A DNA stretch of 64,000 nt from Octopus vulgaris (Eukaryota): positions 82,150,001 through 82,214,000 of the forward strand of contig OX597819.1 in the NCBI GenBank assembly GCA_951406725.2, written 5' to 3'. Under the pieces are notes generated by a model. That model saw only the letters and a program-made list of their open reading frames with translations. It was not told the DNA's origin and did not search any database. Made by a program: the position numbers and the translations under genes. This document shows positions 3,100-61,357 of the stretch, piece by piece (position 1 is the first letter of the stretch; the number at the start of each line of letters is the position of its first letter).

Positions 3100-5100
3100 A
3101 AAATCTCAAGACCTTTAGCGAGAACTTTTTCAGTTGTTTGCTCTGTACATACTGAGAATTGATTCTCCCTACTTCTCAACGCTCTTACCTGTATTTCCAC
3201 AACAAAATTTCAAGGTTATTTTAGTTCAAGGTCTCTCTTGCTCATTATAATACATAGTTCTACAACCTCTAGAAACGAATATCTGTCATCCCGCATTGGA
3301 TGCTTCTGGTGCATCTTACCTATTTCTGAAATTATCACTCTCATTGAATTCAAGGAAAACACTATATTTGGCTTTTCCGCACACCGATGTTGTTAAATGC
3401 AGATGTTGAATATTTTGGCATTTTGAAGTGTCTAACTAGTTCGTATTAATACTGATTGCATATGTATTAAACATGCAAAGACTTCAAGCACACTCGATCC
3501 CATTTTAATCGTCGATTCCCAATCTTTTCCCCTACTGGATCGTCTGACCAGAGCCTTCATCAACTCCATGTACATCACATCTATCTTAAAATACACAATT
3601 CTTCTTCGATACTTTAAATCAGTTAAAGCACCAGGAATTCTGCCTATTCATCCTCTCTGATCTTGAATGCAAATGTATTTTGGTATTGAGTGATTGAAAC
3701 CCTCTTCCTTGCCTTGTTTCTTCGCGCCTTTAACTCAATTAAATGTCACCACCGCTAAACCAAAAGTGATTTTCTAGCACTTGTAAGACAGCAATACAGC
3801 AAAATAATACTATGTATAAAATCTGGAGAATGACATCCAACACAACCAACTAGGAAATTCATATTCACCGTCGCAACGTCTACCATCAGAAAGAAAAAAC
3901 GAATGACTTCTTCCAACTTCGCACAGCCTACAAGTAACAGGAGACTCTTCTGTTCGCTTATCGAGAAGTTTACCAGTTTTGTAGAATTCTTCTTTATACC
4001 ATCACATAAAATTGTTGGCTATGTTAATACTCGTGTTCAAAAACGTCTACTACCTATGCTTTTCGCTTCCTGTATCACGCATTAACAACTCAACAAAACC
4101 TATGCTCAACTTCAACTTCACAACTTCACTATTATCTGCTGACATTGATGAGCATGAATACAAATTGAGTAGTTCATGAAATGCTCACTCCTCAACACTT
4201 TAGAAACTTCTTATATCATTCAATTTATCAAAGCAATTAGTCTCACCTATATCCTATTTTCCCTAAAACTGTTTGCTCCACAGCTGGTTTTTCTATCCTT
4301 GCCACATTCTTCAATATTTTTTCTCAATTCAACCGAACCTACCAATTCTTTGAAAGTTCACTACCTTGTGTCTCCTTCATCAAAGGGAAGGAAATTTCTC
4401 TGTTCTGCCAACCAAAGATATAAAACCGTCACTATTTTACATGTGAGTTAAACATTTAAAAAAATTTCCCCTTTATTTTGTGTCGCCCTCCATCAGCAGG
4501 AAGTGAGTATGAGTTCTGTTGAACTAGTAACTTTTTATCTATGCCACTTCAAACCTCACTTTCAATTCTGAAACCAAACGTATGTCTCTTACACTCTTCC
4601 TTTCATACAATAATGACCTGTGCGTTGTCAGTTCTAAAAGTACCTTTATGCTGATAACATAGTATCCCAAAGTTCTAGGAACCTACTTAATATCTAATCA
4701 GCTTTTTACTTTTATAAACTCAAATAAAATACACATTAGAATACTACTCACATATATCGGACAATGCTACATCCAAACGTATACGAGATTGCTTTCAAAA
4801 GAGGTATACCTTACAAATAATCACCCAATAAAGAACTTCAAACACTGAGTCATGTCATGGGGATTCTCTCCGTGCTCTCTGACCATTCTTACATGAATAC
4901 ACCCGCTTCTAATCCTCCAACTAGCTAGCTTTATACCCAGTTTGTTAAGGCTCACCTGTACCACCAGTCTGTACTTTTTTACGTTGATCCCAGTGTGTCT
5001 CATTTCCTAGATACCGCATGATTTCAATGTTTCCTTCTGATAACTAGAAACCCCTCAGAATTTCTCACTCTTCAGTTTTTCTTCTATCGACAATCTTTTC
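3100..5100 (-). mobile_element. Highly decayed non-LTR retrotransposon RT remnant
   Basis: Minus-strand traces resemble YRPIxL (~4240), FVDxxKAFD (~4040) and GxxQGCxxSP (~3830) in the correct order, but are heavily degenerate. Confidence 0.3.
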
Positions 5101-31269: not shown

Positions 31270-32540
31270 AACATAAAATACGTCTAGTTTTTTCAAAAAC
31301 TAGCATTGTTTGGACACAAAAGTTAAGTTTTCTGGAGGCAGAATAGTGACAGAGTTATTTTGCAAGCCCACGTCATCCCACATTTATCTCCACGCCACAC
31401 CAATCATCCACATCATATTTTTCGATAAAATCCGAAATCCCAATTTTTGAGGATAAAACGGTTTAGTACTGACATAGGGGGCTGCTGGAAATATACAAAG
31501 ACTTCTGTACATCATGATGTCAAACGCGGTTACAGTGAATCACGATTAGAGGAAATAATAAATGAAATGGCTAAGATTAGCAAAGATAGTCAAACCTTCA
31601 CGCATAATTTTAGCAATCGCAATACAATAGATGACAAATTTCGCTGGTATTTCAAAAGTGCTGCTTGAAAGTTACCAACACGTAGCGAAAAAATATCCGC
31701 ATTTCAAACAGATATTTCCTCAGCCGCCTATTGCAGCCTTTATACGGAGGAAGAATATAAGAGAATTATTGACCTCTATTTCTGACTCCAAGAAAACGAA
31801 CATTGGAGCATCTGCACACTGTACCTTGAAAAACAGACGCAAGAGAAGTAAGCCACGTTCATTGTGCAACAAACACGAGTCAAGTGAATTCCATCAGGAA
31901 TCATAACAGAAATGTTATGATTTATACAGAAGGTGGGTCATGTAGAGATTCACATTTGGTGTACGCAGCAGAATGCATGAAACACAACTTGATTTATGTT
32001 GGTTATAGAATTGAACAATTAAACAAAAGATTTAATGGGCACATATATGACATCAGGCACAATAACAGTAGTTCGACAGAAATTGCCGAGGATTTTGCTT
32101 CAAAAGGCTGCAATTTTGAAAAAGATGTGAAAGTGCGTATTCTCAGAAAATATTCTGAATCTGCTTCACTTTTACTTCTCAAAATGCATGAGGAGAAATA
32201 TGTTTGCGTATTGTTAACATCACGCCCTGGAGGAATGAATAAAATGACAGGAGAATATCATCAAATTTATATAAAACCGTTTGATTAAATATTCTTCTTT
32301 TTTACCTTATCTTTTTCTTTCCTCTTTCTTACTCTCGTTTTTTTCTGGTTTTTTTTTCTTTTCGCCTGTTATAACATTGGAATTCAAAGACTGGTGATGT
32401 CATTCCATCAACATGTGGACGCTCGTTTCTCTCATTCATAGTTTAAATTTAAATTTCTATAATTTCGAATTTTTATCACTTCTTATTTTGAACTTGACAA
32501 AGACAAGCTTACTGTCGAAATATCGTTCAACCAATAAAAT
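31270..32540 (+). mobile_element. Penelope-like retroelement, 5'-truncated: RT thumb, GIY-YIG endonuclease and 3' pLTR
   Basis: LDTKV..GRIVTELFCKPTSSHIYLH; IFPQPPIAAFIRRKNIRELL; ORF 31884-32288 CRDSHLVYAAECMKHNLIYVG...LNKRFNGH...PGGMN; T-rich 3' UTR, hammerhead motif and AATAAA. Confidence 0.9.
32488..32530 (+). ncRNA. Minimal type-I hammerhead ribozyme, U3-A8 variant
   Basis: UUGAAC UUGACAA A GACA-agcuuac-UGUC GAAA UA UC GUUCAA: 6-bp stem I, 4-bp stem II, predicted AUC cleavage after 32524. Confidence 0.8.
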
Positions 32541-40939: not shown

Positions 40940-42025
40940 CCAGACCCGATGTTAACGGATTCCAAAAAATGTTCAGCATGTTGTCCGATTTTGATGAAAA
41001 TCGATGAGTGAGCGAAGCTCATGACAGTGAGTTGATGTCCGTATATGGCGTTGACAAAAATCGATAACTGCTCCTGACCAGTGGTTTTATAAAATCAATA
41101 GGCTTTTTGCGTGCAAATACCCATAAGGATATTATTTTTGGCCTTAAATTTTATATTTTTTATCCGATTGTAATAAAATTTGAGATGTAGATAAATTTTG
41201 TGGTGAGAGAGGGCTTCAAAAGGGCACAAATGCAAATAAGCATTTCCTTAGGGACATTCTTATCGATTTTGTAGAAATTTTACACGTGATTATAGTTCTT
41301 GTCCATTAGTTAATGCCAGCATGAAGAGTTGACAAACATTCGATAATTGCGCGTGAGCGAGGGATTTTAAGAAATCAATAGGCTTTTTGGATACAATTAC
41401 CCATAGGATTAATATTTTATGCTGTAACTTTTACAGAATTCTTCCAATTTTTATGAAATTTGACATTTAGGTAAAGTTTGTGGTTGGAGTAATGTAGTAG
41501 AATTAAAATTAAACTGATGAAAGACAGAAATCGTCAAAATTCACTCAAAATAATATAATGAACTGATTTTGAAGAAAATTGACCCATGAGTAAAATTAAG
41601 CACTTCGACAAATGAAACATTGATTATTCATATTATGTATTGGGATTTTAAAGTCAATGGGATATTTCCATGTAACTGGTCACATGGATTCTATTTCATT
41701 ATGTAACTTTAACACTTTTCTTCGGATTTTGCTGAGATTAGACACACAGATCAATTTTGTATAGAGGGTGGCATTAAAGGGAGAGAAATAAACAAACATC
41801 ACTCTCAACGGGTCGAGGTGCACCCAAAAGTTTGCGATTTCAGACGGCCCAGTATATAGGAGTATGTTGAAATCGTTAACCGGGTAAAATCACTGCCGAA
41901 CCAGATATAACATCTTAATGGGTAATAGTTGTTACGGGGAACGTAGAAGATTTCAATACGAGGTCAGAGGTAGGCTTAACTTCTTCAACACGGAAAACAC
42001 GTGCAACACTGGGTACAACAGCTAG
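40940..42025 (+). mobile_element. Non-autonomous Helitron-type element with about three internal ~280-bp diverged repeats
   Basis: The 3' end CACGTGCAACACTGGGTACAACAGCTAG|T resembles the 942 terminus; aaatcaataggctttttg and cccata recur at ~41092 and ~41372. The 5' end was not located. Confidence 0.65.
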
Positions 42026-42486: not shown

Positions 42487-42487
<1 letters not shown>

Positions 42488-43786
42488 TGTCTCTTACAGT
42501 TATATATTTATTTTTCCACTGTTTATATATCTTTTTTTTACTGTTTATATGCTTGTACTGTCGTTACCGTCTTGCTTTTTTTACCATTTTTTACCCCTCT
42601 GCGAAAAGATCTCAGAATTTTAATTGATTTGCTTTTCGCAGGAAGGAAGTTTCTTCGAAGATACGTCTCGCTTTTATCCTTCGAAACGTAGAGTAGATGA
42701 AACCTTAGCGACTGAAGAAGGGGTTTTTTCGTTGTGCTAATTGTCCTTTACTCCCCTTTTTTCTTGTCCTGTTCCTTGGTTTGTGTCTATGTTTTTCGTC
42801 TCTCCATGTGTTCGACGTGTTTTTGGTGTCCTGTACACATATATGCGTGTATATGTACATGTAGAGGTAGGTACGTACATATATGTTTATATATATGCAT
42901 ATGTTCTATTCTTTTATTAATATATTATACGACTAAACGCACGCACCCTCTTAAGTAAGATTGTTCTGTTTATCAAGTTAGCCTTGATATTAACTCTCAC
43001 GCGACTCTGCATCTTTCTTTCTTTCTATCCCATTCCCTTTTTCGTCTTTTTTCCCTCACTTAACTTGTCTCTTCCTCTCTCTCTCATTCTTCACTCTCTC
43101 TCTCCCCCTCACCATTCTTCATGGTCTCCTCGCACCATTCCCCTTCTTCTCTCCCTTCCTCTTGCTCCTCCTCCCCCATTCCCGTCGTCCATCTGCGACG
43201 ATACTTCCGTCGTAACTGCTATCCTGTCTTTTCTCGCCCGCCTTCTAAGGCTACTGGTCGACATTCCTGCTCTCTCGTCGTCCACTATAATCCAGCGTTT
43301 GCAATACTTTTTTCGTCTGGCGTAAACAGCCCTTCTTATCTTGTTCTCCTTGTCCTGTCTCTTACTGTTATATATTTATTTTTCCACTGTTTATATATCT
43401 TTTTTTTACTGTTTATATGTTTGTACTGTCGTTACCGTCTTGCTTTTTTTTACCATTTTTTACCCCTCTGCGAAAAGATCTCAGAATTTTAATTGATTTG
43501 CTTTTCGCAGGAAGGAAGTTTCTTCGAAGATACGTCTCGCTTTTATCCTTCGAAACGTAGAGTAGATGAAACCTTAGCGACTGAAGAAGGGGTTTTTTCG
43601 TTGTGCTAATTGTCCTGTACTCCCCTTTTTTTCTTGTCCTGTTCCTTGGTTTGTGTCTATGTTTTTCGTCTCTCCATGTGTTCGACGTGTTTTTGGTGTC
43701 CTGTACACATATATGCGTGTATATGTACATGTAGAGGTAGGTACGTACATATATGTTTATATATATGCATATGTTCTATTCTTTTA

Positions 43787-43795
<9 letters not shown>
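42487..43795 (+). mobile_element. Non-coding element with ~440-bp near-identical direct repeats (42487-42925, 43355-43795)
   Basis: Repeats differ at a few positions, are separated by a ~430-bp pyrimidine-rich spacer and are flanked by (TA)n on both sides; no TG...CA ends. Confidence 0.9.
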
Positions 43796-43835
<40 letters not shown>

Positions 43836-43873
43836 TGATCAAAATAAAATAAAAACATGATGCGAAGGATTCA

Positions 43874-43951
43874 GCGGTACATATGTTTCGGGCCTTTATT
43901 AGACAGATTTATAACAATGCATAATGTATGTCTGTGGTCTTCTTCAGCCGC
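43874..43951 (-). ncRNA. Type-I hammerhead ribozyme (left-arm copy)
   Basis: Reverse complement of 46090-46167 with one stem II substitution (AGACC instead of AGGCC). Confidence 0.75.
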
Positions 43952-46089
43952 GCACAACAGCTTCCACAAGGACATGTGTTACATCAAAAATTCTTGGTTG
44001 GGGATGCAAATCCTCTCATTCACGTACGACATAATGCGGCAGCAGCATAGAATTGAAGCGTCCATCTCTTTCTTTTCTCAATGTAGAATGAGGAAAATTG
44101 GATGTTGAGGTAATGTAAATAAATAAATACATATATAGAGGTGAAGATGGAGGGGCGAGAGCTCGGGACGAGGGATAAAAAATGTATAAAAAGTGTAAGT
44201 ATAGAATAATATAAAAATGTAGAGGATAAAGATATAAAGAGTTGTAAGGAGATGTAAAGGGGGTATAAAGAAATATAAAGAAATATAAATAAATGTAAAG
44301 GCATAAGGTTATAAAGTAAAAATAGAAATAGAAATAAAATTAAAAAAACCTGATAAAAACATGATAAAAGTGTAAAAGAATGTAAAGATAAGGGATGTGT
44401 AGAGGTTACGGACCAAGCATGGTGGTCAGGAGATTGATAAAATTTAGTTGTAGAATTGTCAGTAAATCAACAGTTTTGTCTGGGGACCTAATGCGTTGTA
44501 AATCAGAGCTGATGAGCATTTAATCTGGTTCTTTGAATTAAATGGACTTCTAGTGCATACATATCATCATGGATACATACACCCACATACACGCGTACAT
44601 ATACGCCTCCAAGCTTATAAGCATACACACGCACTCGCGTGTAAACACGTACATAAACACACACGCACCCACACGCACGCGCGTACACACACATACATAC
44701 AACAACAGAATATCCGCATGTATACACGGACATTATACGCGTACACACTCACATGTGTATACGCGCGCCCGTCACTACATACACACACGTATATGCCCAC
44801 GCCTCTAGGTCTAGGTATAAGATATTAAAGGATGTGTATAAGAACGTATGTAAAGAATCCCGTACTCATGTCTATACGTGCACGCACACACGGCTGTGTG
44901 TCCGTATGTGCGTGCACATATACACTCATATACACACACAGAGACACACGCGCACATGGGTATAGCTATAAGATATCGAAGTATGCATGTACATATGTTT
45001 ATATATACATGCATACTTCGATATCTTATATCTTATACATATGTTTATATATACATGCATACTTCGATATCTTATAGCTATACCCATGTGCGCGTGTGTC
45101 TCTGTGTGTGTATATGAGTGTATATGTGCACGCACATACGGACACACAGCCGTGTGTGCGTGCACGTATAGACATGAGTACGGGATTCTTTACATACGTT
45201 CTTATACACATCCTTTAATATCTTATACCTAGACCTAGAGGCGTGGGCATATACGTGTGTGTATGTAGTGACGGGCGCGCGTATATACATGTGAGTGTGT
45301 ACGCGTATAATGTCCGTGTATACATGCGGATATTCTGTTGTTGTATGTATGTGTGTGTACGCGCGTGCGTATGGGTGCATGTGTGTTTATGTACGTGTTT
45401 ACACGCGAGTGCGTGTGTATGCTTATAAGCTTGGAGGCGTATATGTACGCGTGTATGTGGGTGTATGTATCCATGATGATATGTATGCACTAGAAGTCCA
45501 TTTAATTCAAGGAACCAGATTAAATGCTCATCAGCTCTGATTTACAACGCATTAGGTACCCAGACGAAACTGTTGATTTACTGACAATTCTACAACTAAA
45601 TCTTATCAATCTCCTGACCACCATGCTTGGTCCGTAACCTCTACACATCCCTTATCTTTACATTCTTTTACACTTTTATCATGTTTTTATCAGGTTTTTT
45701 AAATTTTATTTCTATTTCTATTTTTACTTTATAACCTTATGCTTTTACATTTATTTATATTTCTTTATATTTCTTTATACCCCTTTACATCTCCTTACAA
45801 CTCTTTATATCTTTATCCTCTACATTTTTATATTATTCTATACTTACACTTTTTATACATTTTTTATCCCTCGTCCCGAGCTCTCGCCCCTCCATCTTCA
45901 CCTCTATATATGTATTTATTTATTTACATTACCTCAACATCCAATTTTCCTCATTCTACATTGAGAAAAGAAAGAGATGGACGCTTCAATTCTATGCTGC
46001 TGCCGCATTATGTCGTACGTGAATGAGAGGATTTGCATCCCCAACCAAGAATTTTGATGTAACACATGTCCTTGTGGAAGCTGTTGTGC

Positions 46090-46167
46090 GCGGCTGAAGA
46101 AGGCCACAGACATACATTATGCATTGTTATAAATCTGTCTAATAAAGGCCCGAAACATATGTACCGC
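46090..46167 (+). ncRNA. Type-I hammerhead ribozyme (right-arm copy)
   Basis: GCGG CUGAAGA A GGCC...AGACA..UGUCU...GGCC C GAAA CAUAUG UA CCGC: intact core, 4-bp GC stem I, palindromic stem III, predicted GUA cleavage after 46163. Confidence 0.85.
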
Positions 46168-46274
46168 TGAATCCTTCGCATCATGTTTTTATTTTATTTT
46201 GATCAATTTACTCCACCACCTACACCACTAAACGGTATACACAGGTGCTTATAATTATCAAGTACTCACCCCGA

Positions 46275-46315
<41 letters not shown>

Positions 46316-46635
46316 TATATGTACACATATATATACACATATATATATACATATATATACACACATACATAACATACATACATACATATATACATACATA
46401 CACAGATATACAAGATGATGGTGAAATTTTCCTTGTTTAAGGGTATCGCGAAAGGCCTGGCTGGAGGCAAACCCTTCCGAATTCTTTTACAAGGCTTAGA
46501 AAAACTGAAGGACTGCAGCAATAAGTGTGTGAATGTGGGAGAGGAATATGTTGAATACAATCATAATTAAGCCAACCTCCTGTATTTTCTTTTAAACAAA
46601 GCCGGGAACTTTTCGGCACCTACTCGTTTATACAT

Positions 46636-60789: not shown

Positions 60790-61357
60790 TCTAGGCACAC
60801 GGCCCAAAATTTTAGGGCAGAGGGCCAGTCGATTAGAACGACTCCAGTACATAACTGATACTTAATTTATCGACCCCGAAAGGATAAAAAGCGAAGTCGA
60901 CCTCGGCAGAATTTGAACTCAGAACGTAAAGACAGACGAAATCTCTATTTCTTTACTACCCACAAGAGGCTAAACATAGAGGGGACAAACAAGTACAGAC
61001 AAACGGATTAAGTCGATTATATCGACCCCAGTGCGTAACTGGTACTTAATTTATCGACCCCGAAAGGATAAAAAGCGAAGTCGACCTCGGCGGAATTTGA
61101 ACTCAGAACATAAAGACAGACGAAATATCTATTTTTCTTTACTACCCACAAGAGGCTAAACATAGAGGGGACAAACAAGTACAGACAAACGGATTAAGTC
61201 GATTATATCGACCCCAGGGCGTAACTGGTACTTAATTTATTGACCCCGAAAGGATGAAAGGCAAAGTAGACCTCGCGGAATTTGAACTCAGAACGTAACG
61301 GCAAGCGAAATACTGCTACGCATTTCGCCCGGCGTGCTAACGTTTCTGCCAGCTCGT
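60790..61357 (-). mobile_element. Head-to-tail SINE family 2 trimer (~185-bp period)
   Basis: agtcgatta...taattta..gaccccgaaaggat...tttgaactcagaac occurs at 60827, 61011 and 61197. Confidence 0.92.

Follow-up and report, generated by a model that had tools for sequence, protein, structure and literature searches.

A palindrome of paired hammerhead-bearing arms in Octopus vulgaris and its probable origin from a Hydra-clade Penelope-like retroelement

Penelope-like elements (PLEs) of the Hydra clade, including Hydra-1_Obim, are described as having a C-terminal GIY-YIG endonuclease, RWx and DKT motifs and a CxCX5C linker, together with CxxC and CxH motifs near the C terminus, a hammerhead ribozyme and (TA)n targeting (Craig et al. 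2021, PMC8557442), and the octopus family presented here shares each of these features. PLE insertions are also known to include a head-to-head inverted truncated copy, a tail at one end and small palindromes at the junction (PMC8557442, Fig. 2; PMC3846280). The tail is called optional or 'often' one-sided in these accounts; in the octopus family it was counted on one side in 40/40 pairs, and the ancestry of the arms was measured. How PLEs form inverted repeats and tails is named as an open question in PMC8557442.

An insertion reaction has been studied with the Poseidon element PAc, which belongs to another clade (Frangieh et al. 2024, PMC11167929). In the in vitro experiments described there, the purified protein cut and extended both strands and reverse transcription started at two sites flanking the tail; ribozyme cleavage was not needed and the protein was predicted to be a dimer. 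As in the octopus family, the PAc tail is the sequence just after the pLTR with two fixed 3′ ends flanking it, the target is AT-rich and uncut RNA appears to be the template, whereas the PAc ORF starts inside the hammerhead and the octopus ATG lies 151 nt past the pLTR end. Non-LTR retrozymes, as described in bioRxiv 10.64898/2026.07.22.740005, likewise carry a type-I hammerhead of PLE origin, and the copy studied here resembles them in having no ORF. They are nevertheless built of head-to-tail tandem units, each with a hammerhead, in contrast to the head-to-head stump of a coding element found here.

Within the Hydra clade, elements are said to be 'generally short (<3 kb)' with a tail of 30–40 bp (PMC8557442), whereas the octopus unit is ~4.7 kb long with a 2-kb 3′ UTR and its tails measure ~70–85 nt. 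Hydra-1_Obim was judged by eye to be a separate family, with another hammerhead, a distant protein and a 2,507 bp consensus listed with 'no pLTR'. We describe a family that is new, although both its clade and its architecture are known; its separation from Hydra-1_Obim was made by eye. A 2026 octopus repeat annotation reports 31 recently active Penelope-like families, and its main text names no Hydra, hammerheads or palindromes (PMC13282606); the family may already be in that library under an automatic name. Our search of the literature on PLE twin priming and octopus hammerhead PLEs (subscription papers, Repbase and Dfam being outside its scope) returned no account of the family and no count of the one-tail rule.

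The palindrome and its hammerheads

We analysed a 64-kb stretch of genomic DNA (the window), to which all positions refer. The ~2.4-kb palindrome at 43831–46279 is composed of inverted arms at 43831–45007 and 45036–46210, and contains the following features:

43790–43832, no strand: left (TA)n target microsatellite, which also flanks an adjacent repeat of 870-bp units on its 3′ side
43831–44996, minus strand: tailless arm, the final ~1,170 nt of the element 3′ UTR/pLTR in inverted orientation, up to the pLTR end
43874–43951, minus strand: left hammerhead copy, cut site at 43878, stem II G-to-A at 43938
44089, minus strand: mirror of the Initiator-like 5′-end hot spot, matching 45953 by arm register
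44990–45083, no strand: centre junction, a 46-nt tandem duplication spanning the strand switch
45046–46210, plus strand: tailed arm in sense orientation; last ~1,170 nt of the element 3′ UTR/pLTR
45953, plus strand: A of the Initiator-like word TCATTC, at which the 5′ ends of copies cluster; 257 nt before the pLTR end
46090–46167, plus strand: type-I hammerhead, PLE variant, cut after 46163; descriptor match
46211–46279, plus strand: tail of 69 nt, right arm only; first ~70 nt of the element 5′ UTR (sequence of locus L031)
46280–46400, no strand: right (TA)n target microsatellite, degenerate distally

An earlier, sequence-only reading had described ~1.16-kb inverted arms with about a dozen differences and no credible ORF, (TA)n on both sides and an extra tail of ~70 nt on the right arm only, and all of this was borne out. 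By global alignment the arms differ at 18 positions, 12 in the arm bodies (10 substitutions and 2 one-base indels) and 6 in a rearranged centre, where the 46-nt duplication had escaped that reading. The longest stop-to-stop frame of the arms is 148 aa and of low complexity. A separate screen of 25 stop-to-stop frames, each at least 130 aa long, revealed no recognisable host exon. The palindrome, the hammerhead sequence, the tail and the (TA)n flanks are confirmed as real; the palindrome is not a chance structure and is probably not an assembly fold-back. A target-site duplication is unreadable within (TA)n.

The same reading had placed a type-I hammerhead at each arm end. This holds at the level of sequence for both arms; the left copy is however damaged by the stem II change at 43938 and fails the type-I descriptor, leaving the right one as the single match on both strands of the window. 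An A at the position equivalent to 43938 was found in 1/136 arms. Rfam gave no match in the window at its gathering threshold. The right hammerhead has an extra A before stem II, an imperfect stem II, a long loop II and a palindromic CAUAUG helix III, features that match the variant described in PMC4209133, where PLE hammerheads of this type are reported to be poor cleavers as monomers. Among 141 family arms, variation was 0.46% and 0.44% in the hammerhead core, the 3′ half being biased by the search pattern, compared to 2.1% upstream, and an older relative (L060, ~80–85% identity) kept the core and stems with a changed, longer loop II. We conclude that the family pLTR has a type-I hammerhead, with cleavage as a prediction. 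Since each arm ends in a pLTR, the two outward-pointing hammerheads are a by-product of the arrangement.

The source element and its copies

The palindrome is very probably one insertion of an autonomous Hydra-clade PLE into (TA)n, made of two 5′-truncated 3′ ends arranged head to head, of which one runs to the end of the tail and the other stops at the pLTR end. It holds the last ~1,170 nt of the element unit twice, plus the tail. The full unit of ~4.7 kb has a 2-kb 3′ non-coding region, of which each arm is the last ~1.17 kb, and the tailless arm shows 96% identity to positions 3515–4686 of copy L051. Longer copies run upstream past the window arm into the 3′ UTR and then into an RT/endonuclease ORF, and the locus was for this reason read as a 5′-truncated insertion of an autonomous element. 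Locus L031 carries a whole unit, composed of a partial pLTR, a 151-nt 5′ UTR, a frameshifted ORF, a 2.0-kb 3′ UTR and a pLTR. The first ~70 nt of its 5′ UTR are the tail of the window, the 5′ UTR continuing to the ATG in full copies, and its pLTR meets (TA)n at the same base as the left arm. The pLTR-ORF-pLTR arrangement was observed in L031 and L051–L058, and an intact ORF of 836 aa in 4 of the 20 loci fetched for the ORF start (L051–L070), namely L053, L055, L056 and L063.

These copies support the Penelope-like origin proposed from sequence alone, with its pLTR hammerhead, inverted copy and one-sided tail, and provide the autonomous PLE that shares the pLTR. They contradict the further proposal of a non-autonomous, PLE- or retrozyme-like element, as copies continue upstream into the ORF.

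The 836-aa ORF carries RT motifs (QFD..SI, MGS..Q and YRDD), a C-terminal GIY-YIG endonuclease (VIY..TYIG) and the Hydra-clade marks RIRWA at 37 and DKT at 126, as defined in PMC8557442. It also has a CxCX5C linker (CNCRCASEC at 696), CQLC (CxxC) at 793 and CIH (CxH) at 823; the CX2-5CxxC motif was absent from the ORF. With regard to the CCHH motif, which Hydra-clade endonucleases lack, the unaligned sequence showed one Cys between the GIY and YIG words and one just after. Pfam gave no RT or GIY-YIG match on the ORF, and a sub-threshold Desmo_N match was taken as chance. The nearest Atlas neighbours (0.95–0.98) are mostly unnamed proteins of 690–1,070 aa, and some members of the nearest clusters carry HTH_animal, GIY-YIG or RVT_1. 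Motifs and Atlas neighbours together led us to assign the predicted protein to an EN+ Hydra-clade PLE.

Two variations of the unit were observed. A subfamily (L052, L053, L056, L067 and L110), which includes intact-ORF copies, has an internal 3′ UTR deletion with a boundary ~1,570 nt before the pLTR end. L060 (G000:C16:4650900-4659899) and L061 are older relatives of the family, with ~75–85% identity.

The genome-wide search revealed a young multicopy family, as the sequence-only reading had supposed, with single, tandem and inverted copies. The last 320 nt gave 1,920 genome candidates, the 40 scored among them being 98–100% identical, and a hammerhead 28-mer gave 1,547 exact matches, against 0 for the reversed control. 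Among the first 100 of the 1,547 matches listed, 28 outward-pointing pairs within 6 kb were counted by hand, and 2 further pairs were found among 15 apparently single matches. Outward-pointing hammerhead caps are thus nothing unusual in this family. Across the 30 loci fetched, copies shared a fixed 3′ end and differed in their 5′ end. (TA)n or a related microsatellite was present at the 3′ end in 28 of them, in line with the proposed (TA)n targeting and with a family preference for (TA)n insertion; at the two exceptions, the 3′ end continues into the element's own ORF (L023) or meets other sequence (L030). Family copies were also present in contigs of run X12, which we guess to be RNA, and none was tied to the window locus.

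Insertions are not always paired. The 13 single copies comprised 6 tailed and 7 tailless ones, showing that either end can join (TA)n alone. That every insertion is two-armed was rejected, as the 5′ junction of most single copies lacked an inverted piece, short pieces being present in L034 and L038. In one further arrangement (L043 / L027–L028), two copies lie tail to tail (convergent) across one (TA)n, with a duplicated piece of tail. The window locus is ordinary for its family. The family itself is useful, as a young Hydra-clade PLE with intact ORFs and more than 1,500 ends, allowing the origin of PLE inverted repeats and tails to be counted genome-wide and then tested with purified protein.

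Paired arms and how they may form

We collected 40 inverted pairs. The window supplied one, a query that included the tail 14, and the hammerhead list the other 25. In every pair, one arm was tailed (~70–88 nt) and the other tailless (<=10 nt). In the hammerhead list, which is blind to the tail, 27 of the 28 pairs could be read and 27/27 obeyed this one-tail rule; the L051 pair was left uncounted, its inverted end lying outside the fetched region. The rule was also obeyed by L096, L099, L062, L067 and L069. L064 (G000:C28:8611000-8619999), in contrast, has two tailless arms; as the mirror symmetry extends into its flanks, a later duplication is suggested. One flank is common to L062 and L064 and is included in the L064 mirror, either through a larger secondary inverted duplication or as an assembly effect.

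Kinship was compared over 141 arms from 88 loci after 16 duplicate fetches had been dropped. The nearest relative of an arm was its partner in 28/38 pairs (ties counted) and in 13/13 pairs with an overlap of at least 400 nt; the 10/38 pairs in which it was not all had overlaps below 400 nt, the clearest exception being L071, with arms 7.8% apart over 64 nt. The window arms are 0.9% apart, compared to a minimum of 1.3% and a median of 3.3% to 56 other arms, and share 4 private alleles found in no other arm.

The inner ends of the pairs were then compared by permutation, omitting L084 and L095, for which tail status was read separately and the inner ends are ambiguous. They lay within 20 nt of each other in 14/38 pairs, against 3.6 expected, and near-symmetric centres outside the hot spot numbered 6, against 1.0 expected. 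The longer arm was the tailed one in 14/38 pairs and the tailless one in 10/38. In L078 and L082, the tailless arm reaches 4.2–4.4 kb upstream, compared to 0.28–0.29 kb for the tailed arm. Pair centres carry small palindromes and duplications, with longer templated duplications in L088 and L089. Junctions vary from locus to locus, and the centre of the window was found at no other locus examined.

A distinct cluster of 5′ ends was observed, 28/141 arms beginning 240–265 nt before the pLTR end in a sample that is not length-neutral. The hot spot is the A of TCATTC, the sole match to TCAKTY, the Initiator consensus, in the last 1.2 kb. Position 45953 would thus correspond to the transcription start. 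At the ribozyme cut no excess of 5′ ends was seen, with 3 arms compared to 1 and 5 at the control positions, which lie 3 nt to each side, and hammerhead-cut RNA was rejected as the main template on this ground. The 3 arms starting at the cut are real inverted junctions, and L038 ends within 1 nt of it; rare use of hammerhead-cut RNA as template is possible.

We put somewhat better than even chances on a two-primer model, in which a single RNA is reverse transcribed from the two ends of the target, each of them using its own fixed start. The GIY-YIG endonuclease would cut both (TA)n strands, and their 3′ ends would be extended along this RNA, itself uncut, from the tail end in one case and from the pLTR end in the other. 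Synthesis of the two cDNAs would then halt, in the window ~1,170 nt from the start in both cases and within a series of self-complementary words, and end-joining would unite them, small templated duplications often arising in the process. The short, ~257-nt arms would represent run-off copying of the 5′ pLTR and would mark where transcription starts. The model is supported by the one-tail rule, by single copies of either type, by the kinship of partner arms, by the pairs in which the tailless arm is the longer one and by the behaviour of the Poseidon PLE, in which both strands are cut and extended from two starts, albeit in another clade. Against it, the excess of near-symmetric centres could be explained only through a shared stop, the 10/38 pairs with closer relatives elsewhere are unfavourable, as are the two tailless arms of L064 unless a later duplication produced them, and shared alleles would also arise if an unsampled source locus had supplied two RNAs, or through gene conversion after insertion. 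The fuller proposition, which we regard as an even call, is that the family preserves a natural record of the PLE integration step in its unresolved state, with a dimeric RT priming from the two cut strands on a single uncut RNA. The strict one-tail rule would follow, as would sister arms of unconstrained length, run-off copies pointing to a start 257 nt inside the pLTR, and the seeding of several hundred long inverted repeats.

The excess of symmetric centres would be explained more directly, and better than by the two-primer model, if a single cDNA (or antisense RNA) folded back and was copied by self-priming, the endonuclease trimming the tail from one side. PMC3846280 puts forward self-priming as the source of PLE inversions, and PMC8557442 endonuclease resolution as that of the tail; such a route would also yield shared private alleles and the small palindromes and duplications at centres. 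We nevertheless consider it rather unlikely, since the tailless arm reaches further upstream in 10/38 pairs, by ~4 kb in L078 and L082, and tailless single copies are as frequent as tailed ones. A lower probability still, though not a negligible one, goes to arms derived from two RNA molecules of one source locus, which a dimeric protein could carry, or homogenised later by gene conversion in the palindrome; both would produce shared alleles, but alone they leave the one-tail rule unexplained in 40/40 pairs.

We find it highly improbable that the palindrome belongs to a non-autonomous fold-back family of the retrozyme-like kind, mobile as a 2.4-kb unit and giving rise to a self-cleaving dsRNA hairpin. 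The lack of an ORF in the arms and the lower variation of hammerhead cores than of flanks among the 141 arms speak for it. However, the arms are plain, variable truncations of a coding element, their junctions differ and the window centre does not recur at the other loci examined, tandem hammerhead units, the mark of non-LTR retrozymes, are lacking, and the ribozyme is sequestered in the predicted hairpin. Tandem hammerheads in the octopus family flank an ORF. Membership in the non-LTR retrozymes was rejected, as neither head-to-tail units nor a fixed non-coding unit was found. An assembly fold-back is even less probable. The available contigs are short-read ones and no single read or contig spans both arms; on the other side stand the 12 arm differences, the one-sided tail, the unrelated flanks, a like architecture at 39 other loci and a short-read contig across the centre (76 nt from run X1, equal to 44991–45066 with 0 differences, although X1 may be the assembly's own sample).

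Hairpin RNA and neighbouring repeats

A read-through transcript of the palindrome is predicted to fold into a duplex of more than 1.1 kb, and the sequence-only reading had proposed a self-cleaving dsRNA hairpin. This proposal fared poorly. In the predicted fold of the full-length transcript, 78/78 hammerhead bases are paired with the antisense arm, which makes a self-cleaving hairpin unlikely; the lone hammerhead fold, at -13.9 kcal/mol, lies ~5 kcal/mol above the minimum-energy fold (-19.1). The putative promoters of the element point outward (45953, plus strand; 44089, minus strand) and therefore would not make the hairpin, for which an outside promoter would be needed. Inverted pairs, if within transcribed regions, would be sources of long dsRNA. 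If the two-primer model is true, ~430 inverted repeats would be expected genome-wide, as extrapolated from 28 pairs per 100 matches to all 1,547; each would bear two pLTR promoters facing outward and be a potential source of dsRNA and A-to-I substrate.

An ADAR imprint in the retrocopies was considered and rejected, as A>G remained below T>C and no A>G cluster occurred in the 141 arms. In the 3′ UTR, sense-strand singletons comprised 1.15 A>G and 2.25 T>C changes per kb, and in the ORF 1.29 and 2.37, T>C being about twice as frequent. The T>C excess may reflect G-opposite-U errors of the RT.

Several other repeats were noted in the window. A second young repeat at 42487–43795, adjoining the palindrome, is a partial tandem of an 870-bp non-coding unit ending in (TA)n. 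It gave 2,575 candidates, the best 40 of the 2,575 at 95–100%, with 5′-truncated copies and head-to-tail units in L116, L119 and L123–L125. Its hammerhead core halves are in reversed order (GAAAC ~43553, CTGAAGA ~43582) and fail the type-I descriptor. It is this repeat, and not the palindrome, that looks like a non-autonomous PLE-type family. A frame of 152 aa on the plus strand at 31830–32288 matches GIY-YIG below threshold (E 0.0004, 21.1 bits compared to a cut-off of 22.6) and is probably the remnant of another PLE endonuclease. At 60827–61312 there are 2.6 tandem copies of a 186-bp unit with a probable resemblance to an octopus SINE. Finally, three degenerate direct repeats with a spacing of ~280 bp and 60–75% identity are located at 41080–41768.
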